Source of the DNA: a virus
Virus record (IMG/VR): IMGVR_UViG_3300028831_000281
Coordinates: 1 to 56,668 of that record
DNA: 56,668 bases
Reading direction: 5' to 3' (one strand)
Part shown: positions 9,275 through 56,668 of the stretch, one piece after another
Layout of the letters: each line of letters begins with the position of its first letter
Position numbering within the stretch: the stretch's first letter is position 1
Translations under genes and position numbers: made by a program
Notes under the pieces: generated by a model
What the model was told of the DNA's origin: nothing
Databases searched by the model: none
The model's input: only the letters and a program-made list of their open reading frames with translations

Positions 9275-9340
9275 CTGCGGGTCCTTCCCGATCGGTCGTT
9301 CCTGGAGCCTCACGGTACACCCCTGACTATCCGGGGTCAA
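9275..9340 (-). promoter_or_regulatory. promoter + conserved leader cassette
   Basis: -35 TTGACC (9340-9335), 17-nt spacer, -10 TACCGT (9317-9312), CAGGAACGACC, GGAAGGACCC, ATG 9274. Confidence 0.7.
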
Positions 9341-9358: not shown

Positions 9359-9424
9359 TTGACCCCTAATCTCAGGGGGTGTACCGTGAGCAGGACAAGG
9401 GAACGACCACCACGGAGGACCCCG
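9359..9424 (+). promoter_or_regulatory. promoter + conserved leader cassette (divergent partner of 9275..9340)
   Basis: -35 TTGACC 9359-9364, 17-nt spacer, -10 TACCGT 9382-9387, GGGAACGACC, GGAGGACCCC, ATG 9425. The two -35 boxes are 18 bp apart. Confidence 0.7.
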
Positions 9425-10933
9425 ATGAACCCCCAGGACTTCAGCGCCACCGCCGGGCCCACCAAGGTCCAGCGCCTACTGGACTCCGCCACCGAGCGCG
9501 GATTGAGCGTCACCTATGACGGCAAGCCCAACGACGACCTGACCCGCAGCTACGCCTGGACGATTAAGAGCGGCGCCGAGCACGACCGGGATGCCCTGTG
9601 GCTGTTCTGGCACCCGGGCCCTAACGGCGGCTCCCTGGCCATCGACTACTACCGTCCGGAACGCGCTGCCGGCAAGAGCAACATCGAGCGCGTCACCCGC
9701 CGGCAGGCCCACCAGCAGATGCAGTGGATGCGCGAGACGCTGGAGCGCCACCAGGAGCGCGAGGCCGCCCGCGCTGAGGTCGAGGCCCACAACAACGCCC
9801 ACCCGGATGGCCCGGGGTGCACCGTGGAGCACCCCGAACTGACCCCCGCTGGCCGGTCGCTGCCCTGTGTGCTGCGCGGACCACACGCTGTCCACCAGGA
9901 CTCCGTGACTCGCAAGTGGACAGTCGGGGTGCCGGCTCCCGGTGTGGCTCAGCAGAGCCAAGAGCGCCGTCCGGAAATGATCAAGCCGGCCGTGGTGACC
10001 AACGCCAGCGACCTATCACCCGGAATGAAGATGACACTGCTCCGAGACACGCCACACAGCCCCCGGCTGACCACCAGGACCACCGTCAACGCCCTGGAGG
10101 CGCGCGGCTTGGCCGTGAGCATGGGCGATGGTTGGTGCGCCCTGACCGACCAGGGGCGCAAGGTGCGGGCCGCGCTCGAGGGCTACGCCCGCGTGTTGGG
10201 CCCCGTGGCTCCAGACGAGCATCTTGCCGCGTGCGGATGCCCTGAGCGCACCATCCAGGAAGAGGGGCACCGGGAGGGCTGCACCCTGCACGGTGCCGAC
10301 CTGGCACGCTTGGCGCAAATCCGGGCCGACGCCGAGGCCGCTGGGAACGAAGCGCTGGCCGTACAGATCACCCGTGAGAGGATCGCCATGGCCAAGAACG
10401 CGCCGGCCAGCCCGTGGCAGTACCCGGCGAACCCGCAGGACCCGAACTGGTTGCGCGCCGACCAGGTGATCCACCGCGCGGGCGAGATCCTCACCGTGGT
10501 GGCGGTGATCATCCATCAGGGCGTGTTGCGCAGCGTGGCAGTGTCCGTGAATGGCGGCTACGGCGGGAAGCTGCGCTGGTACGGCGACTACGCCGAGCCG
10601 ACCACGGGGCCCGTGTCGATGCTGTTCGACGACGAGTGCGGCCTGCCGGCTGATGAGCGCCGGCCGTGGCCGCGCAGCCTGGTGTCCGCCCATGACACGG
10701 TCCGGCGCGTTCTGCATGAGCAGCGGCTGGACGGGTGGGCGGCCGGCAAGGTGTACGAGGACGAGTCCCAGCCCGGTTACATCGTGGTGGAGGTTCCAGC
10801 GCTCCAGAATCCCGCCCGGCACCTGGCCCTGCTGGAGCGCTACGTGCCGTACGTGTGCAATGTCCGATCCCTGGGGGACAGTGAGGGCTGGACCGAAATC
10901 GCGATCGAGCCCACCGACACCCCGGAGGACTGA
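9425..10933 (+). CDS. hypothetical protein, 502 aa (accessory island)
   Basis: Internal ATG of ORF 9110..10933 after the cassette. Segment TTVNALEARGLAVSMGDGWCALTDQGRKV looks winged-helix-like. No family recognised. Confidence 0.65.
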   Translation: MNPQDFSATAGPTKVQRLLDSATERGLSVTYDGKPNDDLTRSYAWTIKSGAEHDRDALWLFWHPGPNGGSLAIDYYRPERAAGKSNIERVTRRQAHQQMQWMRETLERHQEREAARAEVEAHNNAHPDGPGCTVEHPELTPAGRSLPCVLRGPHAVHQDSVTRKWTVGVPAPGVAQQSQERRPEMIKPAVVTNASDLSPGMKMTLLRDTPHSPRLTTRTTVNALEARGLAVSMGDGWCALTDQGRKVRAALEGYARVLGPVAPDEHLAACGCPERTIQEEGHREGCTLHGADLARLAQIRADAEAAGNEALAVQITRERIAMAKNAPASPWQYPANPQDPNWLRADQVIHRAGEILTVVAVIIHQGVLRSVAVSVNGGYGGKLRWYGDYAEPTTGPVSMLFDDECGLPADERRPWPRSLVSAHDTVRRVLHEQRLDGWAAGKVYEDESQPGYIVVEVPALQNPARHLALLERYVPYVCNVRSLGDSEGWTEIAIEPTDTPED

Positions 10934-27042: not shown

Positions 27043-27528
27043 TCATTCGCCGTAGTGGGCCATCTCCCATTCGCGGGTGCCCCAGTGGTTCTCCCCGACC
27101 GGGTCCATGCACAGGTTCAGGCTCATGCCGTGGTGGCACACCGGGTAGAGCACCTTGGCCAGCTCCGGGAAGGCTTCCCCGGAGAAGGGCGCCAGGTGGG
27201 ATTCGCTGATCGTGTGGGTGGAGCGGCGGGCGGCGATGTAGGCCAGGGCCCACCGCTGCGCGTCGGGGCCCTCGAACGTCACCGTGTAGCTGGCCGGGGT
27301 GTAGTCGCAGCCGAACACGTGGAGGGTGATCGTGTCGGTGCTCTCGGCCGGCGCCGGCATGCGGCGGGCCTGGATGTCCTGCTCGAGCAGCTCGAGCGCG
27401 CTGGCGCAGGTGCCGTCGCAGTAGCTGATGGCGCCGGGGTCGCACTGTCCGTCGCAGGCGGGGCCGATCTCCGGAATCCATGCGCATTCGCAGCCGCCGT
27501 GGCCCTGGCACCAGTACGTGGGGAGCAT
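27043..27528 (-). CDS. hypothetical Cys-rich protein
   Basis: Internal ATG (MLPTYWCQGHGGCECAW..) of ORF 27043..27675 after a cassette. 161 aa. Confidence 0.65.
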   Translation of the reverse strand: MLPTYWCQGHGGCECAWIPEIGPACDGQCDPGAISYCDGTCASALELLEQDIQARRMPAPAESTDTITLHVFGCDYTPASYTVTFEGPDAQRWALAYIAARRSTHTISESHLAPFSGEAFPELAKVLYPVCHHGMSLNLCMDPVGENHWGTREWEMAHYGE

Positions 27529-27605
27529 TTCGGGGGTCCTTCCCTGCGGGGGGTTGTTCCTGGCCTGACAAGAAGGACAGTACACCCCCCACGTACCGGG
27601 GTCAA
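27529..27605 (-). promoter_or_regulatory. promoter + conserved leader cassette
   Basis: -35 TTGACC (27605-27600), 17-nt spacer, -10 TACTGT (27582-27577), CAGGAACAACC, GGAAGGACCC, ATG 27528. Confidence 0.7.
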
Positions 27606-29974: not shown

Positions 29975-29975
29975 G

Positions 29976-30251
29976 TCAGGCCGCCATGACCTTGACGATG
30001 CCGTTGGCGGTCACCGATTCGGTGGTCCAGCTGCGGGCGTCGAAGTCGAACATGAGGAACGACACGGCGCCGCTGCCGCGCTGGCTGCGCATCTTGTGGT
30101 CCACCTCTCCGATCGGGGTGTGCAGTTCCGGGTCGATGAGGATCATGCCCGCCCGCAGCGCGCTGCCCTTGATCTCCACGTAGGGGAGGGCGGCGAAGGT
30201 GTCCAGGTCGCTGCGGACCTCGCTGGCCTTGTTGACGTAGGCGGTGGTCAT
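29976..30251 (-). CDS. hypothetical protein
   Basis: Internal ATG (MTTAYVNK..) of ORF 29976..30410 after a cassette. 91 aa. Confidence 0.65.
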   Translation of the reverse strand: MTTAYVNKASEVRSDLDTFAALPYVEIKGSALRAGMILIDPELHTPIGEVDHKMRSQRGSGAVSFLMFDFDARSWTTESVTANGIVKVMAA

Positions 30252-30317
30252 CGGGTCCTCCGGTAGTTGCCGTTCCCTGACAACAACCACCATACACCCC
30301 CTATGTCCGGGGGTCAA
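30252..30317 (-). promoter_or_regulatory. promoter + conserved leader cassette
   Basis: -35 TTGACC (30317-30312, overlapping the ssb stop), 17-nt spacer, -10 TATGGT (30294-30289), CAGGGAACGGC, CGGAGGACCC, ATG 30251. Confidence 0.65.
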
Positions 30318-33757: not shown

Positions 33758-33771
33758 CGAGTGTTCTCCTC

Positions 33772-34188
33772 CTAGGGTTTTCCGGTGCGGGCGAAGTGTT
33801 CGAGGCCCTCATCCAGCGCCCGGGTGACGTTCATCCCGTTGGCTTCGAGCCGGGCCAGGGCGTTGCGGTAGGTGGCCGCTGCCATGGTGAAGCGCAGCGG
33901 CTTGGTGGGCTGCCGGCCGCCGAACTGCCGGCGGTTGCGGGCGTTGAGCGGGATGCCGGTGCGGGTTTCGAGGTCACCGGAGGGCTTCACCCGGTTGGGT
34001 GCGCCGCGCTTGGGTGGCTCCCATTCGGCGAGGATGGTCCGGCCGATGTCGGCCAGCCTGGTCCGCACCACGCCGTAGGTCTCCCGCTCGGCCTTGTTGA
34101 TCAGTTCGAGGCGCGCTCGCGCTGCCTCGAGGATCGGTTCTTGGATATCCACGTCAACGTTGTGGACATGCACGTCACTCTGGGTCAC
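33772..34188 (-). CDS. hypothetical protein, possible ribbon-helix-helix C-terminus
   Basis: ORF track (GTG, GAAAGGGGGG SD). First gene of the leftward operon. C-terminus LRFTMAAATYRNALARLEANGMNVTRALDEGL. Confidence 0.65.
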   Translation of the reverse strand: MTQSDVHVHNVDVDIQEPILEAARARLELINKAERETYGVVRTRLADIGRTILAEWEPPKRGAPNRVKPSGDLETRTGIPLNARNRRQFGGRQPTKPLRFTMAAATYRNALARLEANGMNVTRALDEGLEHFARTGKP

Positions 34189-34246
34189 TTACCCCCCTTT
34201 CCGTGTAGGGTTGATCTATAGTAACCCACACTACCGGGGGGGTCAA
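34189..34246 (-). promoter_or_regulatory. leftward operon promoter (truncated cassette: promoter half only)
   Basis: -35 TTGACC (34246-34241), 17-nt spacer, -10 TACTAT (34223-34218), short leader to GTG 34188. Confidence 0.65.
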
Positions 34247-34259
34247 CGGAAGGGGACAG

Positions 34260-40897: not shown

Positions 40898-41355
40898 GCT
40901 TCTCCGATCCGCTGCCGGCCCGGCACGCCCGCCGGCTGGTGTCGAACGTTCCGCTGAACGTGGAGGCCCTGCCGGGCGGCAAGTACCGGGTGTCGAGTCC
41001 GGCGGCACGCGGCTGGGCTGGCGTGGCGGGTACGCCGCACGAGCTGGCCCGCGTGCTGGCGCAGGCATTCCACGAGGTGACCCGGGCGTCGGTGGCCCGC
41101 GCGAACCGGGACCGCTATGACCTGGACGGGCTGACCATGAAGGTGGCCGGCGACCCGCTGGCGGGCAAACCGCAGGCCCGGATTCGCGCGGCGCCGGGCG
41201 CGGCGACCCGGTCGATCAGGCACCGTGCGCACGCCCCGGAGTCGTGGACCCGGATGGAGGACGGGCGGTGGCGCTCACCGGGCGGCCGGATGTACTCGCA
41301 CGACTCGGCGGCGGTGCGCAGCGTGCGCAAGCGACTGGGTGAGGACCCCTCTTGA
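40894..41355 (+). CDS. hypothetical protein
   Basis: GTG inside ORF 40714..41355 after AGGAGG with GTGA overlap. 153 aa, basic. Confidence 0.6.
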   Translation: MSFSDPLPARHARRLVSNVPLNVEALPGGKYRVSSPAARGWAGVAGTPHELARVLAQAFHEVTRASVARANRDRYDLDGLTMKVAGDPLAGKPQARIRAAPGAATRSIRHRAHAPESWTRMEDGRWRSPGGRMYSHDSAAVRSVRKRLGEDPS

Positions 41356-41402
41356 CCGGGGGTGTACCATGGGGGGAAGGCCCGAAACCCCAAGGAGGTC
41401 AT

Positions 41403-41774
41403 ATGAAGCCCCCCGCCCTGGTCGAGATGAAACCGGAGACCTACAAGGCCGACGAGCTGCTGATGTTCTACGGCTTCCGCCGGGACAGCCTGCGAGACGG
41501 GACCCTGCTCACCTACGAGCACAGCCACGGCGCCGTGCCGGTGTTGGTGGTGCTGGACGTGACCGCAAACTCGGCGAGGCTGTCGCGCTCGATTCCGGGT
41601 GAGCCGTTCAAGCCGTGGTCCTGTGTGGTGTCCCCGCAGCCGTTGCGGGCTGCGCTCGAGGCGTGCTGGTTCGTCGCGATCAGCCACGGATTGACCCCCC
41701 CGACTATAGGGGGTACGCTGGTCACCGACTGGAAGGAACGTCACACCCCCGATACCCAGAAGGACACCGAGTGA
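41403..41774 (+). CDS. hypothetical protein
   Basis: Internal ATG of ORF 41352..41774 after AAGGAGG. A degenerate cassette remnant lies at 41352-41370. Confidence 0.65.
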   Translation: MKPPALVEMKPETYKADELLMFYGFRRDSLRDGTLLTYEHSHGAVPVLVVLDVTANSARLSRSIPGEPFKPWSCVVSPQPLRAALEACWFVAISHGLTPPTIGGTLVTDWKERHTPDTQKDTE

Positions 41775-47692: not shown

Positions 47693-47827
47693 GTGAGTCG
47701 CGATCGGGACACCCCGGCGGCGGAGATTCGCCGGCAGGCCCGCCGCGAGCTGGCCGACTTGCAGGCGGAGAAGCGGCGGCGGGAGATCCTGGAGGAGGCG
47801 CAGCGGCGAGAGCAAGAACAGGGTTGA
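47693..47827 (+). CDS. small charged coiled-coil protein (44 aa)
   Basis: Not in the ORF track. GTG 47693 (TTG 47690 is also in frame) after GGGGG. Stop TGA lies inside the next -35 box. Confidence 0.35.
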   Translation: MSRDRDTPAAEIRRQARRELADLQAEKRRREILEEAQRREQEQG

Positions 47828-47894
47828 CCCCCGATGGCGGGGGGTGTAGGGTTTCGGGTGTCAGGAACAACCGGACCCCCGGAAGGACCCCGAA
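47824..47894 (+). promoter_or_regulatory. promoter + conserved leader cassette
   Basis: -35 TTGACC 47824-47829, 17-nt spacer, -10 TAGGGT 47847-47852, CAGGAACAACC 47862-47872, GGAAGGACCC 47881-47890, ATG 47895. Confidence 0.75.
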
Positions 47895-48164
47895 ATGCAG
47901 ACCTCCACCCTCGAGCCGATGCGCCGCCCCGCCCACAACGGCGACGAGCAGGACGCCTTCAGCCGCACCGCCCGCCGCTCCCTGTGCGCCCTCCAGCGCG
48001 CTGGTGTCGTGCACCGCACCAAGATCCGTGCCGCCCGCCGCGCGCGCCACGCCCGCCGGCAGGAACTGCGCGCCACCGCCCGGGGCTACGAGAACCTGTT
48101 CGCCCTGGCCCGCACTGGCGATGCGCAGGCCGTGGTGGACGCCTACTGGGCCCTGGACGCCTGA
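47895..48164 (+). CDS. hypothetical basic protein
   Basis: ORF track. 89 aa. A single-gene unit between a cassette and a hairpin. Confidence 0.7.
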   Translation: MQTSTLEPMRRPAHNGDEQDAFSRTARRSLCALQRAGVVHRTKIRAARRARHARRQELRATARGYENLFALARTGDAQAVVDAYWALDA

Positions 48165-48217
48165 TAGGCTCGATGCCAGCAGGAGGCGCAACGCCAGGGC
48201 CAGCAGCCCGGACAGCA

Positions 48218-48250
48218 CTCAGCCCCCGACCGACCTGGACGGGGGCTGAG
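48218..48250. terminator. bidirectional GC-rich hairpin
   Basis: 11-bp stem ctcagcccccg / cgggggctgag, 11-nt loop, between convergent genes. Confidence 0.7.
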
Positions 48251-48262
48251 TCGCGTCTGGAG

Positions 48263-48466
48263 CTATGAGGTGGGGCGCAGGTTGGCCAGCAGCCGCGCGG
48301 GCACGCCGCCGGCCACGTTGATGCGGACGCCGCTCTTGCTGTCGAATGCCGTGCTGCGGGCGCCGTCGAGGTAGACACAGTTGCCGCCGCTGTCCTGGCC
48401 GCCGCCGTCGCTGCCTGAGAACGATGACTTGCGGAACCCTGCCGGGATCTTGCCTGTAGTAGTCAT
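48263..48466 (-). CDS. DUF397 (BldB-like) domain protein
   Basis: Internal ATG of ORF 48263..48619. FRKSSFSGSDGGGQDSGGNCVYL matches the DUF397 core (W/F-R-K-S-S-x-S...C-V-E/Y). Confidence 0.7.
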   Translation of the reverse strand: MTTTGKIPAGFRKSSFSGSDGGGQDSGGNCVYLDGARSTAFDSKSGVRINVAGGVPARLLANLRPTS

Positions 48467-48511
48467 ACGGTCACCGTACCGCAGGGGTCGGACAGTCCGC
48501 GCGATCCAGGG

Positions 48512-48548
48512 TTGACACCCCCAACGATAGGGGGGTAAAGTTACCGGC
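48512..48548 (+). promoter_or_regulatory. promoter giving a leaderless mRNA (truncated cassette)
   Basis: TTGACA 48512-48517, 18-nt C-run/G-run spacer, TAAAGT 48536-48541, only 7 nt to ATG 48549, no SD. Confidence 0.6.
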
Positions 48549-48788
48549 ATGAGCGCCACCCAGAAGCCCAAGTACCGAGTCGGCCAGACCGTAGAGGTCA
48601 AGGAATACGACTTCAGCACTCCCGGCTATCCGGTGGCCTGGATGCCTGGCACCATCCAGGCGGTCGCCTGGAATGAGGACCATGGGCTGTACGACGTGAA
48701 GATCGAAATGGACCGTGGTGGACTAGCGAACCTGCGCGTAGGTCGCCGAGGTGGGAACGCCTTCCTCCGTCCGGCGCCCGTGAGCTGA
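48549..48788 (+). CDS. hypothetical protein
   Basis: ORF track. 79 aa. Confidence 0.65.
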   Translation: MSATQKPKYRVGQTVEVKEYDFSTPGYPVAWMPGTIQAVAWNEDHGLYDVKIEMDRGGLANLRVGRRGGNAFLRPAPVS

Positions 48789-48796
48789 GCCACAAT

Positions 48797-48830
48797 CGGG
48801 CCCCTGCGCGGGGGATACCGCAGGGGCCCG
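48797..48830 (+). terminator. GC-rich hairpin
   Basis: 12-bp stem cgggcccctgcg / cgcaggggcccg, 10-nt loop. Confidence 0.65.
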
Positions 48831-48854
48831 CACCTATAAGGAGACCGAGCGCTG

Positions 48855-49628
48855 ATGCAGTACCTGGGTGGCAAGGCCCGCCAGGTAGCCCACCTGTCCG
48901 GCATTCTGGTCGCCATCCCGCACCGCCGCTACCTCGAGCCGTTCCTGGGCGGTGCGTCCATCGCCGAGCGCGTGGCCCCCCAGGTTCGCAGCCCCGAGGC
49001 TTCCGACGCCCACCCCGATCTGATGCTGATGTGGCAGGCCCTGGTGGACGGGTGGCAGCCGCCGGCCGAGGTGTCGCGCGAGGAGTACGCCGCGCTGCGC
49101 CACGCCGAGCCGTCCGCGCTGCGCGGCCTGGTGGGGTTCGGCGCGTCGTTCGGCGGCAAGTGGTTCGGCGGCTACGCGGTACGCGGGGTTCATCCCAAGA
49201 ACATCCCGGGCCCGGTCTACCGGGCCGGCCGAGAAGGGGCGATGCGCAAGGCCGCCGTGCTTCGCGCTGCCGGCGTGAAGCTGGCATGCCGGTCCTACGA
49301 GGAGACCGACGCCGGCCCGGGTGATCTCGTGTACTGCGACCCGCCGTACGCCGGCACCACAAGCTATGACGGCCTGCCCGCGTTCGATTCGGACCGGTTC
49401 TGGGCGTGCGTTCGCGGGTGGGCGTTGGCGGGCGCGTCGGTGCTGGTGAGCGAGTACAGCGCGCCGCCGTGGGCTCGGGTGGTGTGGAGCCGGCCGGCGG
49501 TGAAGAGTCTGCGCCGGGATCAGAATGATGGCGCGGCGGTGGAGCGGCTGTTCGCGGTTGGTGGCGTGTTGGGGTTCGGGCCGGCGATGCTGCGCCTGAT
49601 GGACCCGGACTTGACCCCCGGACAGTAG
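48855..49628 (+). CDS. dam: DNA N6-adenine methyltransferase (Dam/D12 class)
   Basis: ORF track. AAGGAG SD. N-terminal MQYLGGKARQ and catalytic VYCDPPYAG motifs. Confidence 0.85.
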   Translation: MQYLGGKARQVAHLSGILVAIPHRRYLEPFLGGASIAERVAPQVRSPEASDAHPDLMLMWQALVDGWQPPAEVSREEYAALRHAEPSALRGLVGFGASFGGKWFGGYAVRGVHPKNIPGPVYRAGREGAMRKAAVLRAAGVKLACRSYEETDAGPGDLVYCDPPYAGTTSYDGLPAFDSDRFWACVRGWALAGASVLVSEYSAPPWARVVWSRPAVKSLRRDQNDGAAVERLFAVGGVLGFGPAMLRLMDPDLTPGQ

Positions 49629-49678
49629 GGGTGTAGAGTCTGTACTGTCAGGAACGACCCGATCGGGAAGGACCCACC
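49611..49678 (+). promoter_or_regulatory. promoter + conserved leader cassette (starts inside the dam 3' end)
   Basis: -35 TTGACC 49611-49616, 17-nt spacer containing the dam stop, -10 TAGAGT 49634-49639, CAGGAACGACC, GGAAGGACCC, ATG 49679. Confidence 0.75.
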
Positions 49679-50173
49679 ATGGCAGACCAGTACCGCTGGC
49701 TCGGCATCACCGACGAGTGCACCGACTGCGAGAAGTGCCACAAGGCCAACCTGAAGTCAACCGTGGTGCTCCAGTACCTGGACGTGGACGGAAACCCGGA
49801 CGGCGACCCCGTCTACTTCGGATCCACCTGCGCCGCCCGCGCCCTGTCCGTCAAGGGCGGCGGCCGGTCGGTGCTCGCCTCCGCGCGCGGCGCCCACCAC
49901 CAGACCCTGACCGATGCAGCCGACGCCCGCAGCATGCTCGAGCTGTACGGGGTTCCCGAGTCCGGCGACATGGACGACGACGGCTACCGGCAGGCCGTGG
50001 CCAACTACCGGCGGTACAACGCGGGTGTGGCGCATTGGGACTTCCCCTACCTTCTGGGCAGGGTGCGCGACTTCACTGCCCGCAGGCGGGCCGCGATCGC
50101 CGCCGCCGCGCTGATCGACCCGGTATGCCCCATGTGCCAGTGCCAGCACCAGCCGCGCAAGCGCACCCCCTGA
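49679..50173 (+). CDS. hypothetical protein with N-terminal Cys cluster
   Basis: ORF track. 164 aa. CTDCEKC near the N-terminus and CPMCQC near the C-terminus. Confidence 0.7.
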   Translation: MADQYRWLGITDECTDCEKCHKANLKSTVVLQYLDVDGNPDGDPVYFGSTCAARALSVKGGGRSVLASARGAHHQTLTDAADARSMLELYGVPESGDMDDDGYRQAVANYRRYNAGVAHWDFPYLLGRVRDFTARRRAAIAAAALIDPVCPMCQCQHQPRKRTP

Positions 50174-50182
50174 GAGGACCGA

Positions 50183-50359
50183 ATGGCCAGAGGCGGAACC
50201 AGCAAAGGGCACAAGGGTCACGGCGAGAAAGGCCAGGGCTATAAGGGCCACAAGGGCAAGGGTGACCAGGATGAGGGCGTGTGGCGGCAGTCTCAGCGGG
50301 CCGCTGATATCGCCACCCACCTGATCAAGCAAGCCCCCAAGGGCAACGGAAAGAAGTAG
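50183..50359 (+). CDS. small Gly/Lys/His-rich protein (58 aa)
   Basis: Not in the ORF track. ATG after GAGAGGACCGA. KGHKGHGEKGQGYKGHKGKG low-complexity run. Hairpin follows. Confidence 0.5.
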   Translation: MARGGTSKGHKGHGEKGQGYKGHKGKGDQDEGVWRQSQRAADIATHLIKQAPKGNGKK

Positions 50360-50365
50360 CACCGC

Positions 50366-50393
50366 ACCCCGCCGGCCATGCAGCCGGCGGGGT
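50366..50393 (+). terminator. GC-rich hairpin followed by TTT
   Basis: 11-bp stem accccgccggc / gccggcggggt, 6-nt loop, then ttcccgt. Confidence 0.7.
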
Positions 50394-50427
50394 TTCCCGT
50401 GGAACATCCAACCGAGAGGACCCGACC

Positions 50428-50925
50428 TTGACCACCAGCGAACCGACCGTTACCAGCGGCACCGTCGCCACCCTCATCTGCATCCCCATCCTGCTGGCGA
50501 TCTTGGCCGCCGGACTGGCCTGGGCGCTGCTCTACGCCCGCCGCAACCACGACACCGGCAACGACGGCGAGGAGTTCGCCGCCAAGATTCTGGCCGCCGC
50601 GCTCGGCGTGCTCATGGTGCTCACCGTGGTGGCCACCTGGTGGAGCATGTACCCGTGGCGTTGGGAGTATCACGAGTGGCGGCCGATCTCCGGCACGGTG
50701 GCTTCCGTGGACTCCAGGCTGAACCGCACCGACTCCGGAACGGAGGAGAAGTTCGTGGTGACGTTCGAGGGCAGCCGCCAGCAGTACGGGGTCCTGGACA
50801 CCCGGGCCGCGACGCTGCGGCCGGGCGACCGGCTGAGCATCACCTGTGTGCGCCGCTGGCAGTGGTCGGGCACGCACGGCTATGACTGCGCCTTCGTGGA
50901 CATGGAGCGCCCTGTCAGTCGTTGA
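50428..50925 (+). CDS. membrane protein (2 TM + C-terminal domain)
   Basis: ORF track (TTG after GAGAGGACCCGACC). 165 aa. Confidence 0.6.
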   Translation: MTTSEPTVTSGTVATLICIPILLAILAAGLAWALLYARRNHDTGNDGEEFAAKILAAALGVLMVLTVVATWWSMYPWRWEYHEWRPISGTVASVDSRLNRTDSGTEEKFVVTFEGSRQQYGVLDTRAATLRPGDRLSITCVRRWQWSGTHGYDCAFVDMERPVSR

Positions 50926-50991
50926 CACCCCCGACTCACAGGGGGTAGGGTGGGCAGTGCAGGAACAACCAACCGGAAGGACCCGATACTC
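50922..50991 (+). promoter_or_regulatory. promoter + conserved leader cassette
   Basis: -35 TTGACA 50922-50927 (overlaps the upstream stop), 18-nt spacer, -10 TAGGGT 50946-50951, CAGGAACAACC, GGAAGGACCC, ATG 50992. Confidence 0.75.
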
Positions 50992-51363
50992 ATGATCCGA
51001 AACGACGAGGTGACAGGCGGCGACGACATGAGCAAGAGCAGCCGCGACCGCGAGATCGCCCGCCGCCGACACAAGATCCGGGTGGCCATGTCTCGACTGG
51101 AGCCGGGTACCGACCCGGAGCCGCCGCGCCCGCCGCAGGCGCCCGAGCCTCCCCGGCCGCCGCAGGCGCCCCTGCCACCGTTCGCCCTGCCGCCCGCCTA
51201 CTACGAGAACGTGGCGGCGATCCGGCGGGCGTTCGGTGTCACGCCGCCGCCGCGTACCTGGCGGGCTGACCCGGTCAGGACCTTCTACTTTGGACTGGCG
51301 CTCGGCCTGGTTCCGCTCGTCCTGGTCATGTCCGCCCTGTTCATCGCCGGGGTGCTGCCGTGA
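50992..51363 (+). CDS. Pro-rich membrane-anchored protein
   Basis: Internal ATG of ORF 50950..51363. Tandem EPPRPPQAP x2. C-terminal TM helix. Confidence 0.65.
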   Translation: MIRNDEVTGGDDMSKSSRDREIARRRHKIRVAMSRLEPGTDPEPPRPPQAPEPPRPPQAPLPPFALPPAYYENVAAIRRAFGVTPPPRTWRADPVRTFYFGLALGLVPLVLVMSALFIAGVLP

Positions 51364-51527
51364 CCAGCCTGGAGGACATGCTGGCCAACCTCGAGGTGCT
51401 GGACTGGCAGCGCATCGCCGCCGAAACCACGGTCGTCACCGGCCAGCCGTGCACCGCCGAGCAGGCCCGCGAGATCTGCACCGATCAGATCCGGCTGGCC
51501 TGGATCGAGAAACTGGAGGGGCTGTGA
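51360..51527 (+). CDS. small hypothetical protein (55 aa)
   Basis: Not in the ORF track. GTGA overlaps at both ends. High third-position GC. Confidence 0.5.
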   Translation: MTSLEDMLANLEVLDWQRIAAETTVVTGQPCTAEQAREICTDQIRLAWIEKLEGL

Positions 51528-51958
51528 CCGAGCCGGTGCGGTGGTTGCTCACCATCTCCCGAGAGTGGACGTGGTGGACCCTGCTGCGCATGCGCTATAC
51601 CACCCTGGCAGCCGCCTACCCGCGATCGGTCCTGGTGCACGGCAACGCGCCGCAGGGCGACCAGCAGGCCGCACGCATCTGGAAGCTGGAGTTCGGCGGC
51701 CAGACGGACCCGTGGGACGCCGACTGGGAGACCTGCACCGACGAGTGCCGGCACCGACCTCGATACAACCGGGCCGGCCGGCTCTACTGCCCGATCGCCG
51801 GCTTCCGTCGCAACGCCGCCATGGTGGAGCGGGGCCGCTGCCGGTTCATGGAGGCGTTCATCCACAACCACTCGCCCGGCGCCACCGACTGCGCCAAGAA
51901 GGCGAAGGCCGCCGGTCTACCTGTCACCATCCACCGCAACCCTTGGGAGATCCGTTGA
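51524..51958 (+). CDS. DUF2493-type (SLOG-like Rossmannoid) protein
   Basis: GTG inside ORF 51236..51958. VLVHGNAPQGDQQAARIW, DADW, AGFRRNAAMVERG, SPGATDCAKKAKAAGLPV follow the DUF2493 pattern. Confidence 0.7.
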   Translation: MTEPVRWLLTISREWTWWTLLRMRYTTLAAAYPRSVLVHGNAPQGDQQAARIWKLEFGGQTDPWDADWETCTDECRHRPRYNRAGRLYCPIAGFRRNAAMVERGRCRFMEAFIHNHSPGATDCAKKAKAAGLPVTIHRNPWEIR

Positions 51959-52086
51959 GCTACACCTGTTCGAAGGGCTGCGGCGCCACCCGCTCGAGCT
52001 ACTCGGCGATCACCACACACGAATCGTCGTGTGTGGGCAAACCCCCGCCTGACCGCAAGGCGCCCGAACCGAAAGGACCCCGGTGA
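51955..52086 (+). CDS. small C2HC-like protein (43 aa)
   Basis: TTG in ORF 51541..52086 overlapping the upstream stop (TTGA). SYTCSKGCG..THESSC. Confidence 0.35.
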   Translation: MSYTCSKGCGATRSSYSAITTHESSCVGKPPPDRKAPEPKGPR

Positions 52087-52262
52087 CCAACATCCTGCCC
52101 CGCCACTGGTGCGACCCGGTGGCCCACCCACACGACGCCAGCCGGGCCGTGTGCGGCTGCGGACGCCGCTGGATTCCCTTGGGCGACCCGAACAGTATCG
52201 GCCTTCTGATGCTGCGCCCCGAGCGCTTGTGGGAGCGCGCAGCGCGGTGGTGGAGACCGTGA
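52083..52262 (+). CDS. small hypothetical protein (59 aa)
   Basis: Not in the ORF track. GTGA overlaps at both ends. Confidence 0.4.
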   Translation: MTNILPRHWCDPVAHPHDASRAVCGCGRRWIPLGDPNSIGLLMLRPERLWERAARWWRP

Positions 52263-52444
52263 CCGCCGGCCGCCTGCTACTGGTGATCGTTCGGTGCGTG
52301 CTGGTGTTTGTGGCCAGCTTCATGCTTGGCCTGGCCGCCACGTTCGGCCTGGTGCCCCCGTTCGACGCTGCCGCCGCCGTGGGCGCCGGTCTGGTGAGCG
52401 CGTTCCTGTTCGTCGCGTTCTGGGCGTTGGGGTGGTTGGAGTGA
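52259..52444 (+). CDS. small membrane protein (61 aa)
   Basis: GTG in ORF 52031..52444 with GTGA overlap. Two TM helices. Confidence 0.5.
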   Translation: MTAGRLLLVIVRCVLVFVASFMLGLAATFGLVPPFDAAAAVGAGLVSAFLFVAFWALGWLE

Positions 52445-52686
52445 GCCGGCCGCAGCACCCGCCGATGACAGAGACGCATCCGATCATGGCCGGTGCTGAT
52501 GACGTGTGGGAGTTCGGCCCGTCGCTGTGGGCGTGGTGGGTGCCGGGTGCCGGGGTGGTGGTGCAGGGCGAGGACGGCGACGTGACGATCCCGCCGGATC
52601 GGCTGATCTTGTTGGCGCGCGCGTTGATGGCAGCGGGCGTGACGGCGAGCCGCCCGGAGTGGAGGGCGCCGGGCGGTGGCCAGTAA
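52441..52686 (+). CDS. hypothetical protein
   Basis: GTG in ORF 52294..52686 with GTGA overlap. 81 aa. Confidence 0.5.
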   Translation: MSRPQHPPMTETHPIMAGADDVWEFGPSLWAWWVPGAGVVVQGEDGDVTIPPDRLILLARALMAAGVTASRPEWRAPGGGQ

Positions 52687-52885
52687 GGGTGGCTGGCGCA
52701 GGACGCACGGCGGGCAGTTCGGCCGACCGAAACGGAAGTTCGCCCGCTACTGCGATGCGTTGTGGTTCGTGCTCGGCAAGCATGGGGCGTGTTCGCAGTA
52801 TTCGGTGTACCGGTGTGATCGGGGCGACGTGTCCGGCACGGTGGGGGATCCGCATTGGCATCATGGCCGCGCCCGCCAGACTTGA
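52676..52885 (+). CDS. hypothetical protein
   Basis: ORF track. Third-position GC ~78% by my count of 69 codons. Stop lies inside the next -35 box. Confidence 0.45.
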   Translation: MASKGGWRRTHGGQFGRPKRKFARYCDALWFVLGKHGACSQYSVYRCDRGDVSGTVGDPHWHHGRARQT

Positions 52886-52949
52886 CCCCCCTACCGGTGG
52901 GGGTGTAGAGTGGGCTCACGAGGAACAACCACCCCGGAAGGACCCGATC
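52882..52949 (+). promoter_or_regulatory. promoter + conserved leader cassette
   Basis: -35 TTGACC 52882-52887, 18-nt spacer, -10 TAGAGT 52906-52911, AGGAACAACC, GGAAGGACCC, ATG 52950. Confidence 0.75.
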
Positions 52950-53261
52950 ATGAACGAGCTTCCCACCCTCGAGCAGACCGCCAAGAGGTCCGCCGACAAC
53001 CTGTCCGAGGCCCTCTACCAGATCGGCCTGGTCCGCAGCCGGCTCGAGGAAGCCGAGCAGCTCATCCGGGTCGGCTCGCCCGTGGACCTCGACTTCGCCG
53101 CCGACGCGCTGCGCGCCGCGCAGTCCAGCACCCGCACCGCCCGCTCCCAGGAAACCTGGATGACCGGCATCCTTATGGCGCAGGCTGGCCACAGCAACGT
53201 GCGCATTGCCCCGTACCGGGCACTGGTGGCCACCGCGCTGGCCGAGCGCGTGGACGGGTGA
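52950..53261 (+). CDS. hypothetical helical protein
   Basis: Internal ATG of ORF 52506..53261 after the cassette. 103 aa. Confidence 0.65.
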   Translation: MNELPTLEQTAKRSADNLSEALYQIGLVRSRLEEAEQLIRVGSPVDLDFAADALRAAQSSTRTARSQETWMTGILMAQAGHSNVRIAPYRALVATALAERVDG

Positions 53262-53266
53262 GCGAC

Positions 53267-53935
53267 ATGAAGGCTCCACGCCTGCTGGATCTGTTCAGCG
53301 GAGCCGGTGGCGCAGCGATGGGCTACCGGCTGGCCGGCTTCGAAGTGGTCGGGGTGGACATCCGGCCGCAGCCCAGGTATCCGTTCGAGTTCCACCAGGG
53401 AAACGCGCTGGAGTTCGTGGCTGACTACGGTGGCGAGTTTGACGCCATCCACGCAAGCCCGCCGTGTCACGACCACTCGTCGCTGAGATCGCGATCCGGT
53501 GCGGACGGCACCGGCTGGCTTCTCCAGGCCACCCGTGACGCCCTGGCCGCGCATCCGGTTACAGTGATCGAAAACGTGGAAGGTGCGCCGATGCGCGCGG
53601 ATCTGGTGCTGTGCGGCTCCATGTTCAACCTGGGGTCGGACGGGTTCGTTCTGCGCCGGCATCGCCTGTTCGAGTCGAGCTTGCCCTTGTCCGCGCCTGG
53701 CCCGGATGCGTGTGCGGGGAGACCGGCCGGCGGGGTGCACGGCGGGGGCCCGTGGAAGCGTTCTGATCGCCCGGGGATCAAGTTCAATGCCGAGCAGGCG
53801 CGTCGGGCCATGGGTATCGGCTGGATGGGTCGGGATGCCTTGGCGCAGGCGATTCCGCCCGCGTACACGAGGTGGATCGGGGAGCAGTTGTTGTCCTTGC
53901 CGGCAGGGGTTGACACCCCCCGTGTCGGGGGGTAG
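53267..53935 (+). CDS. DNA (cytosine-5) methyltransferase, compact form
   Basis: Internal ATG of ORF 52910..53935. Motifs DLFSGAGG (I), SPPC (IV), ENV (VI), RRHRLF (VIII), QAIPP (X). Only 222 aa. Confidence 0.85.
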   Translation: MKAPRLLDLFSGAGGAAMGYRLAGFEVVGVDIRPQPRYPFEFHQGNALEFVADYGGEFDAIHASPPCHDHSSLRSRSGADGTGWLLQATRDALAAHPVTVIENVEGAPMRADLVLCGSMFNLGSDGFVLRRHRLFESSLPLSAPGPDACAGRPAGGVHGGGPWKRSDRPGIKFNAEQARRAMGIGWMGRDALAQAIPPAYTRWIGEQLLSLPAGVDTPRVGG

Positions 53936-53979
53936 GGTCACTTCTATCAGGAACAACCCCAACCGGGAAGGACCCCGAA
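53910..53979 (+). promoter_or_regulatory. promoter + conserved leader cassette (inside the methyltransferase 3' end)
   Basis: -35 TTGACA 53910-53915, 17-nt spacer CCCCCCGTGTCGGGGGG, -10 TAGGGT 53933-53938 (contains the TAG stop), CAGGAACAACC, GGAAGGACCC, ATG 53980. Confidence 0.75.
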
Positions 53980-54333
53980 ATGGCCACCAGCATCGCTACC
54001 CAGAACCCCACCTTCCACGCCCTTTCCACCGACGTGCCGGTGGGGCACAAGCAGGTGTTCGTTCGGGGCGACTACGCCGGCACCGTGACCACGGTGACCC
54101 GCATCAACCACAATTACTGGGGGGTGACCGTGCGCGAGGTGCGCAATGCCTTCAGCAGCCCGGTGGTGGGCGTGTCGGCCACCGTGTGGCGCGACTCGAA
54201 CGGCCAGTGGGTGGCCGACTACCAGGACGCTTCGACCAGCGTGGAGATCACCCGGGCGTTCGTCCTGCGCGCCGCGCTCGGCCTGGCTATCTGGTCGGCC
54301 GGTGACCGGGGGCACACCGCCGGCCGGTGGTGA
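53980..54333 (+). CDS. hypothetical protein
   Basis: ORF track. 117 aa. A single-gene unit closed by a hairpin. Confidence 0.7.
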   Translation: MATSIATQNPTFHALSTDVPVGHKQVFVRGDYAGTVTTVTRINHNYWGVTVREVRNAFSSPVVGVSATVWRDSNGQWVADYQDASTSVEITRAFVLRAALGLAIWSAGDRGHTAGRW

Positions 54334-54340
54334 CCTAGAC

Positions 54341-54375
54341 GTGGGCCCTCCCCGGAGCCAGCGGGGAGGGCCCAC
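54341..54375 (+). terminator. GC-rich hairpin
   Basis: 14-bp stem gtgggccctccccg / cggggagggcccac, 7-nt loop. Confidence 0.75.
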
Positions 54376-54395
54376 CCATTCGAGGGGAGGAAACG

Positions 54396-54713
54396 ATGGG
54401 ACTGTCCACAGTGGAGATGCCGGCCTACGCGGAGGTGGCCCTCGAGCGCGCCGAGGCCGAGGCCGTCGAACGCACCGCCGCCACCAGCGGCAAGGTGGCC
54501 TACGAGGTGATCCGGGTGGTCGGCTGGTCCCAGAAGGGCCTGCGCTACCAGACCGTGATCGACTCCCGGCAGACCTGGGCCGACATCGCGGAGAACGGCG
54601 TGGTTGCCGGGCGAAGCTACCGGATAACCACGACCTACCAGTCGCGCAACCCGGACGGCCAGCACACCGTGTTTGTCGGCTCCGACTCGCGGGACTGGAT
54701 CGAGCCCCGATGA
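54396..54713 (+). CDS. hypothetical protein
   Basis: ORF track. GAGGGGAGGAAACG SD. 105 aa. Confidence 0.7.
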   Translation: MGLSTVEMPAYAEVALERAEAEAVERTAATSGKVAYEVIRVVGWSQKGLRYQTVIDSRQTWADIAENGVVAGRSYRITTTYQSRNPDGQHTVFVGSDSRDWIEPR

Positions 54714-54897
54714 GCTGGCAGCATCCCTGGATTCAGGCCCTGGCAGACGCCAAGCTGGCCGAGCTGACCCGGTATCACCCTCTGTCCGCAGGCGTGGAGC
54801 GTAGCCAGGCACTGAACGATCACCTGAGTGCGTGTCTTGCTGGTGGTGATCAGTCGGGCGCCGATGCCGGACCCGGCGGAGTGGTCGAGGATCTTCG

Positions 54898-55167
54898 ATG
54901 GCCGCCGCATCGCGGGGTAGGCGGTCTGGCCACTACGGACCCACGCCGCTGCGCATGGTCACGGTGGGCAACGTGGCCTACCTGGGGGGCGGGTGCCGCC
55001 GGTTCGGCTGCAACCACACATTCCTTCAGCACGACATGGGGCGCCCGGATGGCGGGCATGGTCTCCAGGGCGAGGGCGCGCAGGGCGGCCAGTGTCGGGG
55101 CACGAACCGGGACAGTGCGGGGGTGAAGTCGCCGTGTGCGTGTCCGTGCTTCCAGAATTTCGGCTGA
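54898..55167 (+). CDS. hypothetical Cys-rich protein
   Basis: ORF track. GAGGA SD. Third-position GC 16/20 and 19/20 in the two 60-nt blocks I counted (54901-55020). Confidence 0.6.
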   Translation: MAAASRGRRSGHYGPTPLRMVTVGNVAYLGGGCRRFGCNHTFLQHDMGRPDGGHGLQGEGAQGGQCRGTNRDSAGVKSPCACPCFQNFG

Positions 55168-55172
55168 ACCTG

Positions 55173-55242
55173 TTGACCCCCCGTCCACTGGGGGTGTAGA
55201 GTTCACTTCAGCAGGAACGACCGGCAACCGGAAGGACCCGAC
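55173..55242 (+). promoter_or_regulatory. promoter + conserved leader cassette
   Basis: -35 TTGACC 55173-55178, 18-nt spacer, -10 TAGAGT 55197-55202, CAGGAACGACC, GGAAGGACCC, ATG 55243. Confidence 0.75.
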
Positions 55243-55596
55243 ATGATCGCCACCACCGACACCAGCCCCAAGGCCCAGGCCGACGCCCTCGCCGCCATCC
55301 TCGAGCGCGAGATCGCCGAGCGGATCACCAACCTTGACTACCAGGTGATCTGGACCGCCCGCGAGTACAAGCTGATTGGCTGGCTGTACCGCAAGGCGAC
55401 CATCACCGCCGCCCCGGGCCGGGTCGCGATCGACGCCCCCGCCGGCCGCACCGCGCAGCGCTACGGCTACGTGCTTTACTCCGCTCTCGAGAACGCCTTC
55501 GCCACCCTCGAGACCACCCCGTGGGCCGTCCCCTACGAGGGCCCCGGCGCGGCCAACGGCCACAGCAGCGACACCGGCGGATCGCTCACCTGGTAG
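55243..55596 (+). CDS. hypothetical protein
   Basis: ORF track. 117 aa. A single-gene unit closed by a hairpin. Confidence 0.7.
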   Translation: MIATTDTSPKAQADALAAILEREIAERITNLDYQVIWTAREYKLIGWLYRKATITAAPGRVAIDAPAGRTAQRYGYVLYSALENAFATLETTPWAVPYEGPGAANGHSSDTGGSLTW

Positions 55597-55606
55597 TCCC
55601 ACCGAC

Positions 55607-55631
55607 GCCCCCCGCCCACCCGGCGGGGGGC
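55607..55631 (+). terminator. GC-rich hairpin
   Basis: 10-bp stem gccccccgcc / ggcggggggc, 5-nt loop. Confidence 0.65.
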
Positions 55632-55650
55632 AAGAGAGGTTTGAAGGATC

Positions 55651-55785
55651 ATGCGGAAACGATTGCGGTTCGCCCTGGTGGCCGCCGGCTGGACCCTGGT
55701 GGCGATACCGGCCGTGGTTGGCGCCCAGCTTGGCGCCATCCTGCTGGTCTTGTGGGTGGCCACCTGGATGCCGGGCCTGGGCTGA
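55651..55785 (+). CDS. small membrane protein (44 aa)
   Basis: Not in the ORF track. ATG after GAAGGA. MRKRLRFALVAAGWTLVAIPAVVGAQLGAILLVLWVATWMPGLG. Confidence 0.5.
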   Translation: MRKRLRFALVAAGWTLVAIPAVVGAQLGAILLVLWVATWMPGLG

Positions 55786-55853
55786 TGCCAACTTCACTTG
55801 GCATGCGGACCGACGTGCCAAGCCGAACACCGTCACAGTTGGATGGAGGAGAC

Positions 55854-56024
55854 ATGGCCAAGAGTGCGGGCGGTAGCTACTGCTCATCGTGCGGCCAGAA
55901 GCATCGCGGCAAGTGCGCGGCCAGCCAGGGCACGCCGCCACCCAAGGAGACATCCGACAAGGAGCGCCAAGCGGCCGAGCGGGCGAACAAGGATCTGCGC
56001 GATTCCCGCTGGACCGACAGGTGA
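55854..56024 (+). CDS. small hypothetical protein (56 aa)
   Basis: Internal ATG of ORF 55521..56024 after GGATGGAGGAGAC. CSSC..KC motif. Confidence 0.5.
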   Translation: MAKSAGGSYCSSCGQKHRGKCAASQGTPPPKETSDKERQAAERANKDLRDSRWTDR

Positions 56025-56338
56025 GCGGGCCCAACCACCCGCGCGGCACGAGCAACAGCAACCAGCGCGGCGGCTCGGCTGCCCGCGCGGCTCGGCGCCG
56101 CTGGCTGGTCGAGGTGTTCGGGGACGGCGAGTTCGTGGACTGCGCGCTGCGGGCGGTCCCGGGCTGCTGGGTGGCCATGACCGAGTGGAGCGTGTGGGTG
56201 GATCGCATCCTGCCGGGCGCCCGTGGCGGAACCTACGAGCGGGGCAACATCCGGCCGGCGTGCGGACCGTGCCAGATCCACACCGGTATCTGGCTGCGGG
56301 AGCAGTTGAAGGCCGAGCGCGCGCAGGTGGGCGCGTGA
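56021..56338 (+). CDS. HNH endonuclease (small)
   Basis: GTG in ORF 55889..56338 with GTGA overlap. VDRILPGARGGTYERGNIRPACGPCQ resembles the HNH core. Confidence 0.6.
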   Translation: MSGPNHPRGTSNSNQRGGSAARAARRRWLVEVFGDGEFVDCALRAVPGCWVAMTEWSVWVDRILPGARGGTYERGNIRPACGPCQIHTGIWLREQLKAERAQVGA

Positions 56339-56502
56339 GCGGGCGGGAGACGGTGGACGGCCGGCGGGATCAGCGCGCGGTGGCCGCGCTCGAGCGGATC
56401 GCGGTGGCGATAGAGGCGGTGCTGGTGGAGCTGCGGGCGGTGCGGGAGCTGCTGGAGTCGGACCGGAAACCAGGGCTTGACCCCCGAGCACGGGGGGTGT
56501 AA
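56335..56502 (+). CDS. small hypothetical protein (55 aa)
   Basis: GTG in ORF 55798..56502 with GTGA overlap. Stop TAA lies inside the next -10 box. Confidence 0.45.
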   Translation: MSGRETVDGRRDQRAVAALERIAVAIEAVLVELRAVRELLESDRKPGLDPRARGV

Positions 56503-56545
56503 TGTCGTCCATGTCAGGAACAACCCACCAGGGAAGGACCCCAAG
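56477..56545 (+). promoter_or_regulatory. promoter + conserved leader cassette
   Basis: -35 TTGACC 56477-56482, 17-nt spacer, -10 TAATGT 56500-56505, CAGGAACAACC, GGAAGGACCC, ATG 56546. Confidence 0.75.
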
Positions 56546-56668
56546 ATGACCACCTTCGACCTCCAGGCCAACATGATCCCCAGCCAGTACGGCGAACAGG
56601 ACCAGTGGAAGTCCGCCGACCAGTACGACGCCGCCCGGGGCAACGTGGAGTGGGTGCAGATCCGCTGC
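56546..56668 (+). CDS. hypothetical protein, 5' part (continues at base 2 after removing the 67-bp overlap)
   Basis: ATG after the cassette. Frame stays open to the window end. Last 67 nt are identical to 1-67. Confidence 0.7.
   Translation, partial: MTTFDLQANMIPSQYGEQDQWKSADQYDAARGNVEWVQIRC
56602..56668. repeat. 67-bp terminal duplication, identical to 1..67
   Basis: Exact match to the first 67 bases of the window. Confidence 0.9.

Follow-up and report, generated by a model that had tools for sequence, protein, structure and literature searches.

Why do most small accessory genes of a single phage begin with the same ~70 bases? The question is raised by IMG/VR virus record IMGVR_UViG_3300028831_000281, an uncultivated phage genome of 69% G+C, of which the whole stretch of 56,668 nt was analysed (the window). 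The repeated unit comprises a promoter with an inverted repeat, a short leader, a ribosome site and a start codon, and we consider it probable that it is a composite, portable expression cassette that joins a host-read promoter, an insulating hairpin, a translation leader and a patch for recombination. The element appears to be a new sequence family of a kind already known from T4-like and some actinobacterial phages.

Twelve full cassettes of ~70 bp each lie in the window, eight on the + strand (9359, 47824, 49611, 50922, 52882, 53910, 55173 and 56477) and four on the - strand (8986, 9340, 27605 and 30317), and all 12 match the coordinates listed in an earlier note on this DNA. A nhmmer profile of the 12 recovers them at E = 1.7e-20 to 2.2e-13, with no comparable match elsewhere in the window. 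The shuffled-sequence control proposed in the note bears the family out: in 200 dinucleotide-preserving shuffles the full composite never appeared (12 observed) and the promoter pattern TTGACN-N17/18-TANNNT appeared 0.24 times on average (max 2; 15 observed). The sub-motifs are enriched too, CAGGAACRACC (<=1 mismatch) being found 14 times versus 1.9 expected and GGAAGGACCC 16 times versus 6.4 expected. All 15 consensus promoters carry the C-tract/G-tract spacer; 12 have the full leader, and the other three have a degenerate leader (41691(+)), a leaderless ATG (48512(+)) or another leader (34246(-)). Every copy is oriented like the gene downstream of it. The eight copies placed by the note within 47.8-56.5 kb resolve into seven full and one partial in 8.7 kb. 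Its four truncated copies proved to be of different kinds, with a promoter and leaderless ATG at 48512(+), a promoter with another leader at 34246(-), a remnant at 41352(+) and a weak variant at 44612(+), and its list lacked the promoter copy at 41691(+) and the leader-only copy at 603-633(+). The copies, with the two-promoter module among them, are as follows (ORF, open reading frame).

603..633, + strand: leader-only copy without promoter (box, ribosome site, ATG at 631), downstream of a hairpin at 535-575
8918..9004, - strand: full cassette 8986(-) with an extended hairpin at 8964-9004 (z = -5.1), whose loop contains the -35 and whose 3' arm adjoins the -10
9272..9340, - strand: full cassette, back-to-back with 9359(+), heading an 87-aa ORF
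9359..9427, + strand: full cassette heading a 502-aa gene, the major head protein gene and the tail operon (9425-26949)
27526..27605, - strand: full cassette heading a Cys-rich 161-aa ORF
30249..30317, - strand: full cassette with variant box GGGAACGGC and ribosome site GGAGGACCC, heading a six-gene leftward unit
34186..34246, - strand: promoter copy with another leader, GGAAAGGGGGG, and a GTG start, in front of the leftward Erf/SSB operon; its hairpin, -4.7 kcal/mol, is the weakest of the window promoters
41352..41375, + strand: collapsed remnant, TTGAC-C-GGGGGTGTACC, no spacer, nhmmer E = 0.04; possibly a recombination scar
41691..41773, + strand: promoter copy with degenerate leader; GTG at 41771 heads a 187-aa ORF
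44612, + strand: weak variant with -35 TTGCCC, nhmmer E = 0.18
47824..47897, + strand: full cassette with -35 TTGACC, -10 TAGGGT, box CAGGAACAACC, ribosome site GGAAGGACCC and ATG at 47895 of an 89-aa ORF; spacer hairpin CCCCCG/CGGGGG, -12.9 kcal/mol
48512..48551, + strand: promoter-only copy, TTGACA-18-TAAAGT, hairpin -11.6 kcal/mol, leaderless ATG at 48549, seven bases past the -10
48517..49616, + strand: module bounded by two promoters, with a leaderless 79-aa ORF and a D12-class DNA methyltransferase (48855-49628)
49611..49681, + strand: full cassette heading a 164-aa ORF (49679-50173)
50922..50994, + strand: full cassette of TTGACA subtype
52882..52952, + strand: full cassette heading a 103-aa ORF
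53910..53982, + strand: full cassette with the strongest spacer hairpin, -16.0 kcal/mol, heading a 117-aa ORF
55173..55245, + strand: full cassette within a ~0.96-kb stretch missing from a ~86%-identical relative (described below)
56477..56548, + strand: full cassette whose gene spans the circular junction and ends at 529

None of the 12 cassette-led first genes has a Pfam match, and among the ten scanned against PHROGs there was one weak match, to a family of unknown function. Cassettes also stand ahead of virion genes, contrary to the note's statement that none does: 9359(+) is the sole consensus promoter ahead of the 9425-26949 operon of head protein, tail and tape-measure genes, and 2.3 kb downstream of 56477(+) come the portal and MuF-like genes, in the same orientation. 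The stretch from the MuF-like to the capsid gene holds 8986(-) and 9340(-).

The search of related phage genomes that the note had suggested yielded 87 further distinct copies, spread over metagenome contigs and some nine phage contigs of IMG/VR that are related to the window. The structural genes of these relatives share only ~68-72% DNA identity, and cassettes are kept where the flanking DNA is not; the unit is conserved across the clade. For what follows, 82 copies were parsed and 98 folded (window plus relatives).

The promoter appears to be of near-consensus actinobacterial housekeeping-sigma type, as the note had proposed: the spacer is 17 (38 copies) or 18 nt (44 copies) in 82/82 parsed copies, with a -35 of TTGACA/C and a -10 of TAnnnT throughout. 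The accompanying proposal that host RNA polymerase reads it fits the lack of any phage sigma factor or RNA polymerase domain among about 80 ORFs scanned. Which letters fill the spacer depends on the lineage, with TTGACC-CCCC...TG-TA in 10/12 full copies of the window and TTGACA-CCCAC in 59/59 copies of six relatives, where the left half, TTGACACCCAC, is near-invariant (59/59). Such states, shared by all copies of a genome, indicate that the copies evolve in concert or co-evolve with a trans-acting factor. The pattern TTGACCCC-N8-11-GGGGTGTA met mostly single, unrelated matches in viral contigs and is specific to the window lineage. As a separate observation, three related contigs (L013 ~299, L014 ~135, L116 ~2605) carry a cassette with a -35 of TTGCG/TTGTG whose spacer holds GTGGGTGTCAA; this being the reverse complement of TTGACACCCAC, the arrangement resembles an overlapping divergent promoter pair.

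A feature missed by the earlier note lies within the promoter itself, namely an inverted repeat that can fold as a hairpin. In the window, C4-6 follows TTGAC and G4-6(TG) precedes the -10, the latter pairing with the spacer C-tract or with sequence upstream of the -35, and spacer hairpins of -8.3 to -16 kcal/mol are predicted in 14/15 promoters. Perfect spacer stems of at least 5 bp occur in all 12 full window copies, and of at least 4 bp in 72/81 copies of relatives; the G-tract at -6..-1 is the 3' stem arm in ~85% of folded copies, 46% of which have z < -2 versus shuffles. Many relatives go further, with perfect 10-16-bp stems that place the -35 in the loop and the -10 in the 3' arm. Perfect stems of at least 7 bp (up to 16 bp, enclosing the -35) from the upstream flank to the -10 region are found in 23% of copies versus 8% after arms are swapped among copies, and copy-specific 5' arms complement even the variable -10 letters (TACTGT/ACAGTA, TATTCT/GAATA). 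Between 8986(-) and its orthologue in the 86% relative (L010) there is a compensatory change, from CCCGG/CCGGG to CCAG/CTGG. In 63 copies versus 33 it is the sense strand that has the better fold (p = 1e-4), with extra G-U pairs, and the weakest window hairpins belong to the three promoters without a co-directional upstream gene (p = 0.009, n = 3 versus 12). With copy-specific arms, a compensated change, asymmetric strands and weak hairpins where no co-directional gene lies upstream, the data speak for a structure that forms on the upstream transcript rather than for a site bound by protein in a fixed sequence. The note's picture of insulated units appears to hold in outline, with the amendment that a hairpin also lies inside the promoter and not only at the ends of units.

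Two strong GC hairpins without T-tracts were also seen to close units, one at 535-575 with a 15-bp stem, following the gene that ends at 529, and one at about 8400-8434, where two convergent genes end at 8394 and 8444. The terminators of this genome appear to be of a kind without U-tails.

Downstream of the promoter the units have one leader and ribosome site in common, as the note had reported. The A/C-rich box (C)AGGAACAACC begins 7-14 nt past the -10 in parsed copies, which puts it at, or a few bases from, the predicted 5' end. The ribosome site GAAGGACC is present in 78/82 parsed copies, 4-7 nt ahead of a start that is ATG in 82/82. Read against the standard anti-Shine-Dalgarno sequence, GGGAAGGA could base-pair with the 3' end of 16S rRNA over eight positions, and the conserved CCC that follows could not. 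Directly 5' of AAGGA, a 3-4-bp helix abuts the conserved ribosome site GGGAAGGACCC. This second hairpin also covaries: among distinct leaders, pair 2 can form in 87/89 versus a partner-shuffle mean of 79.6 and pair 3 in 59/76 versus 42.1, with C-G, G-C and U-A types all seen. Predicted accessibility of the Shine-Dalgarno core is 0.70 versus 0.62 with a shuffled leader, and higher in 66 copies versus 16. Operons also contain copies of the leader alone, as at 603 in the window and in the 86% relative; the leader would thus work apart from the promoter, which speaks for a role after transcription, the simplest being to make translation start efficiently. We also considered whether the GGAAC box could be the -35 of an extracytoplasmic-function (ECF) sigma factor and rejected this, as no conserved CGTC/GTT-type -10 stands 16-17 nt downstream, where the ribosome site lies instead. 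The leader of 27605(-) (27526-27562) has an 8-nt insertion in its box relative to its orthologue (GTCAGGCCAGGAAC versus GTCAGGAAC).

Evolutionarily, some insertions, deletions and translocations of gene-sized modules have endpoints in cassettes. Compared with the ~86%-identical relative, a genome from metagenome Ga0075425, the region from terminase to portal is a mosaic with gene-sized indels. In the clearest event, a 1,099-bp module (48517-49616), of which 48512(+) is the left edge, is missing from the relative, whose single cassette at this place consists of the left part of the promoter at 48512 and the right part of that at 49611, the crossover falling within TTGAC[A]CCCC. The next gene, the 164-aa ORF at 49679-50173, has unrelated DNA in its place, and 49614-49675 and 50921-51013 stand as 90%-identical cassette islands amid unrelated DNA. 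Across the comparison, 7/33 homology breakpoints fall <=10 nt from a cassette versus 1.6 expected (4-fold, p = 8e-4). Three further gene-sized indels mark an islet at 8.1-9.4 kb, in one of which a leaderless ORF splits a promoter from its leader. The family of the 117-aa ORF behind 53910(+) retains its cassette in eight other contigs, and the 161-aa gene at 27528(-) has 42-51%-identical, cassette-led homologues between the MuF and capsid genes of distant relatives, so that this cassette-plus-gene module apparently sits at a different locus there. A similar relocation of the 8920(-) gene family was rejected, as the link came from single-linkage clustering only and direct blastp finds just the 86% relative. 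A prophage or host origin of the unit was likewise rejected: a scan of one genome per species across 185,579 bacterial and archaeal species gave 66 single leader-pattern matches, none with a full cassette.

Functionally, we posit that the parts work together. The promoter, of actinobacterial housekeeping-sigma type, would be transcribed by host RNA polymerase; on a transcript arriving from the upstream unit, its inverted repeat would fold as a GC-rich hairpin that attenuates or terminates read-through, and each unit would in this way be insulated. In the ~35-nt leader, the A/C-rich box at or near the 5' end, the small hairpin, the exposed GGGAAGGACCC and the ATG would jointly yield uniformly efficient translation. 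Since the same ~70 bp stand in one orientation at gene boundaries, the copies may double as homology patches, at which recombination would delete, insert and relocate gene modules and so sustain a plastic stretch of small accessory genes; candidate proteins for this recombination are the phage's homologues of Erf, SSB and RusA. We infer all of this function, that is promoter activity, termination, translation and the recombination mechanism, from sequence.

Several observations weigh against this explanation. The 68-nt segments fold better than shuffles in only 3/12 window copies, the others having 5-6-bp GC stems; no E. coli-style T-tract terminators were found on the + strand, the four matches of that scan all being antisense of leaders, and T makes up only about 28% of the letters that follow the stem. 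G+T composition could explain part of the sense/antisense asymmetry, and since neither copies of one genome nor those of related genomes are independent of each other, covariation and accessibility come with inflated p-values. The lineage-specific states are equally expected from a co-evolving DNA-binding factor, and 26/33 homology breakpoints lie away from cassettes.

In a different reading, which we hold to be rather unlikely, a dimeric phage or host regulator binds the C-tract and G-tract and switches all units together. A repeat in the spacer and over the -10 is ideally placed for repression; its left half is near-invariant in six relatives, and the change of the whole copy set by lineage (CCCCC/GGGGG versus CCCAC/GTGGG) fits co-evolving specificity. 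In the Cluster K mycobacteriophage Adephagia, moreover, the arms of the extended start-associated sequence (ESAS) are fixed in sequence, and a regulator has been proposed there (PMC11373665). In the present copies, however, arm sequence, stem length (4-18 bp), loop length and arm position vary from copy to copy, and complementarity is kept despite this variation, even at the variable -10 letters. Also against an operator are a right half far less conserved than the left and the difference between the strands, in which G-U pairs are in excess, and domain scans found no repressor-like domain apart from one HTH_36 replication-type protein.

Alternatively, the unit might be no more than a strong promoter and a strong ribosome site homogenised by gene conversion, with C and G tracts acting as promoter-strength elements (e.g., GGG at -15 to -13) and the hairpin potential incidental, a possibility to which we give little credence. 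It would account for the G at -3 relative to the -10 in 99% of copies, the near-invariant GGG and the lineage-wide homogenisation, and most window stems are indeed short and no stabler than shuffles of GC-rich DNA. It fits poorly with the long perfect stems of relatives that match each copy's own -10, with the compensatory change in an orthologous pair and with the weaker hairpins where upstream co-directional transcription is absent, and in T4-like myoviruses the promoter-early stem-loops (PeSLs), which occupy the same position, terminate transcription. A self-mobile miniature element akin to a miniature inverted-repeat transposable element, spread by transposition and promoter-like only by accident, would explain many dispersed copies and at least one cassette-plus-gene module at different loci across genomes, yet it is already disfavoured and most improbable, given that every copy is in register with a start codon 4-7 nt past the ribosome site, that no terminal inverted repeats bound the unit and neither target duplications nor a transposase are present, that homologous crossover within two copies accounts for the single event resolved, and that the host-genome scan met single leader matches and no full cassette.

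An expression cassette with an insulating hairpin remains the reading we prefer. A 67-bp terminal direct repeat (window 1-67 and 56602-56668) marks the genome as circular or complete at 56,601 bp, and PHROG and Pfam scans of about 80 ORFs give the following map.

2241-5363, + strand: portal
up to 8144: MuF-like gene
11651-13471: major head protein
up to 26949: tail genes, among them that of the tape measure (18856-21456)
27043-34188: leftward block holding SSB and an Erf-family recombinase
from 34260: rightward block with an HTH_36 protein, DnaC-like loader, endolysin, large terminase, RusA and D12-class methyltransferase
39311-40897: large terminase, within the rightward block

The rightward block ends in small genes that run over the circular junction up to the portal, so that ~17.9 kb of small genes separate large terminase from portal, an unusual location for a plastic region. 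No integrase, repressor, sigma factor or RNA polymerase domains were found among the ORFs scanned, and scans with Rfam (gathering threshold) and for tRNAs found nothing. There is no close cultured phage (major capsid protein <=35% and large terminase <=42% identical), and exact-protein look-ups of two window proteins returned no record. By megablast against cultured phages, the methyltransferase is the sole nucleotide match within 47-56.7 kb, with 75-82% DNA identity over ~100-145 bp to Arthrobacter phage Tbone and Curtobacterium phages; since it alone resembles cultured-phage DNA, recent horizontal transfer is suggested and a Micrococcales host hinted at. The divergent control region between the Erf/SSB and the replication-lysis-terminase operons (34186-34263) is the best-conserved non-coding stretch seen against the 86% relative (~97% identical); in it TACTAT(-) and TATAGT(+) overlap as a palindrome, and no consensus rightward promoter was found for the operon from 34260. 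Between portal and MuF-like gene, a 100-aa ORF (5368-5670, + strand) matches the Acb2/Tad1 hairpin domain (Pfam PF24729, E = 1.5e-11) and is a candidate sponge protein against cyclic-oligonucleotide-based antiphage signalling (CBASS) or Thoeris defence.

How does the cassette compare with known systems? Arthrobacter Cluster AZ phages came up through a blastn leader match and were rejected as a parallel, the VResidence genome having isolated similar ribosome sites and no cassette family. The stoperators of Cluster A mycobacteriophages are 13-bp repressor sites without promoter or ribosome site. They too are many, short, asymmetric, in one orientation and near gene boundaries, whereas the conserved unit here is a promoter plus translation start region with no known repressor; stoperators have been contrasted with start-associated sequences (SAS) before (PMC3203893). 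Lambdoid morons resemble our units in being single accessory genes with their own promoter and terminator; they share no conserved flanks and are thought to move by illegitimate recombination (PMC2839356).

Closer are the SAS/ESAS of Cluster EF Microbacterium phages (Jacobs-Sera et al. 2020, PMC7302621). Their ribosome-site motif, GGGAAAGGACCCC, differs from the window motif by one A; the upstream element is centred on GTAGAG, and GTAGAGT is the -10 form of three window copies; a hairpin lies just 5' of the motif, about 10 copies occur per genome, starts are ATG, and one copy stands upstream of Hager gene 15, between portal and scaffolding genes. They differ in having GTAGCGAAA rather than TTGACA at the -35 position, an upstream element AAATTCTCATTT and no CAGGAAC box. 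No genome-level relatedness to Cluster EF was detected, and the cassette-consensus search gave only a 25-nt match in Hager. In Hager (L178, OP580517), ESAS within 7317-48580 read promoter-like, as AAATTCTCATTT, GTAGCGAAA, 17 nt and a TAGAGT-type -10, and hairpins often enclose the -35-position element, with a second hairpin just 5' of GGGAAAGGACCCC.

The ESAS and SAS of Cluster K (Pope et al. 2011, PMC3203893; Adephagia study 2024, PMC11373665) follow the same blueprint, so that the link drawn to them in the earlier note was apt. ESAS have recently been reinterpreted as promoters resembling those of SigA, each holding a 15-bp inverted repeat to which a regulator is proposed to bind (PMC11373665). 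Adephagia has TTGACA, 17/18 nt and TAnnGT, an inverted repeat over spacer and -10, an A/C-rich CAACAAC-type leader, and GGG-(Shine-Dalgarno)-CCC 3-7 nt ahead of a mostly ATG start; in Cluster K, as here, elements stand in one orientation in 7-19 copies, are absent from host genomes, have lineage-specific repeat variants and have a left arm better conserved than the right. On the other hand, the SAS is GGGATAGGAGCCC (13 bp, <=2 mismatches) versus GGGAAGGACCC here, with other letters and another length; the repeat arm is ATGCATACAG instead of C/G tracts; and arms are fixed with pairing judged not to be maintained, whereas here arms vary and pairing is kept. Cluster K phages are also temperate, while neither integrase nor repressor was found here, and their elements are confined to the non-structural genome, unlike 9359(+), which heads a capsid-tail operon.

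PeSLs of T4-like myoviruses (Arbiol et al. 2010, PMC2839356; Comeau et al. 2014, PMC4122927) have promoter and terminator activity and form mini-circles, as experiments have shown, with a role in modular shuffling (PMC2839356). Both families combine a housekeeping-sigma promoter (16-18 nt spacing in PeSLs, 17/18 here), a stem-loop with G and C tracts mostly between -35 and -10 or over the -10, and a Shine-Dalgarno and start codon at the 3' end; in both, many copies stand in one orientation among small genes of unknown function, and indels or replacements between related genomes end inside cassettes. The present phage differs in being a high-GC actinobacterial phage with a tape-measure tail rather than a T4-like myovirus, in having C/G-rich columns where PeSLs have an AT-rich tract upstream of the -35, and in its additional conserved leader box and ribosome-site motif; and while PeSL functions are proven by experiment, the cassette is known from sequence alone.

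We tentatively raise the possibility that PeSLs and actinobacterial-phage ESAS+SAS are the same device, a portable promoter-terminator-ribosome-site linker that insulates single accessory genes and is used by the phage's short-homology recombination (here Erf, SSB, RusA) to take up, lose and move gene modules. If so, the blueprint shared by Cluster K, Cluster EF and the window clade (TTGACA, 17/18 nt with a repeat over the -10, CAACAAC-type leader, GGG-Shine-Dalgarno-CCC, ATG) would mark a widespread gene-cassette system in high-GC phages, and what the inverted repeat conserves would be its function as a hairpin rather than as a repressor site. The Cluster K start-associated sequences date from a description of 2011, and papers of 2024 and 2025 still call their role unclear or unverified. 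With its textbook promoter, copy-by-copy covariation of arms and natural recombinants with crossovers inside the element, the window clade is an unusually legible case, and its main value is as a natural case for deciding the roles of the inverted repeat and the conserved start region; on this clade, operator and terminator readings could be decided for the whole class. In practice, the 70-bp unit is a candidate for a compact, insulated part with which to express genes in high-GC hosts. The interpretation in the earlier note is supported in part and fails on the virion genes. The sequences suggest that the shuffling of genes through cassettes, for which T4-like phages have so far been the documented case, also goes on in actinobacterial phages, and the element is best seen as an actinobacterial-phage counterpart of the PeSL and ESAS+SAS cassettes.

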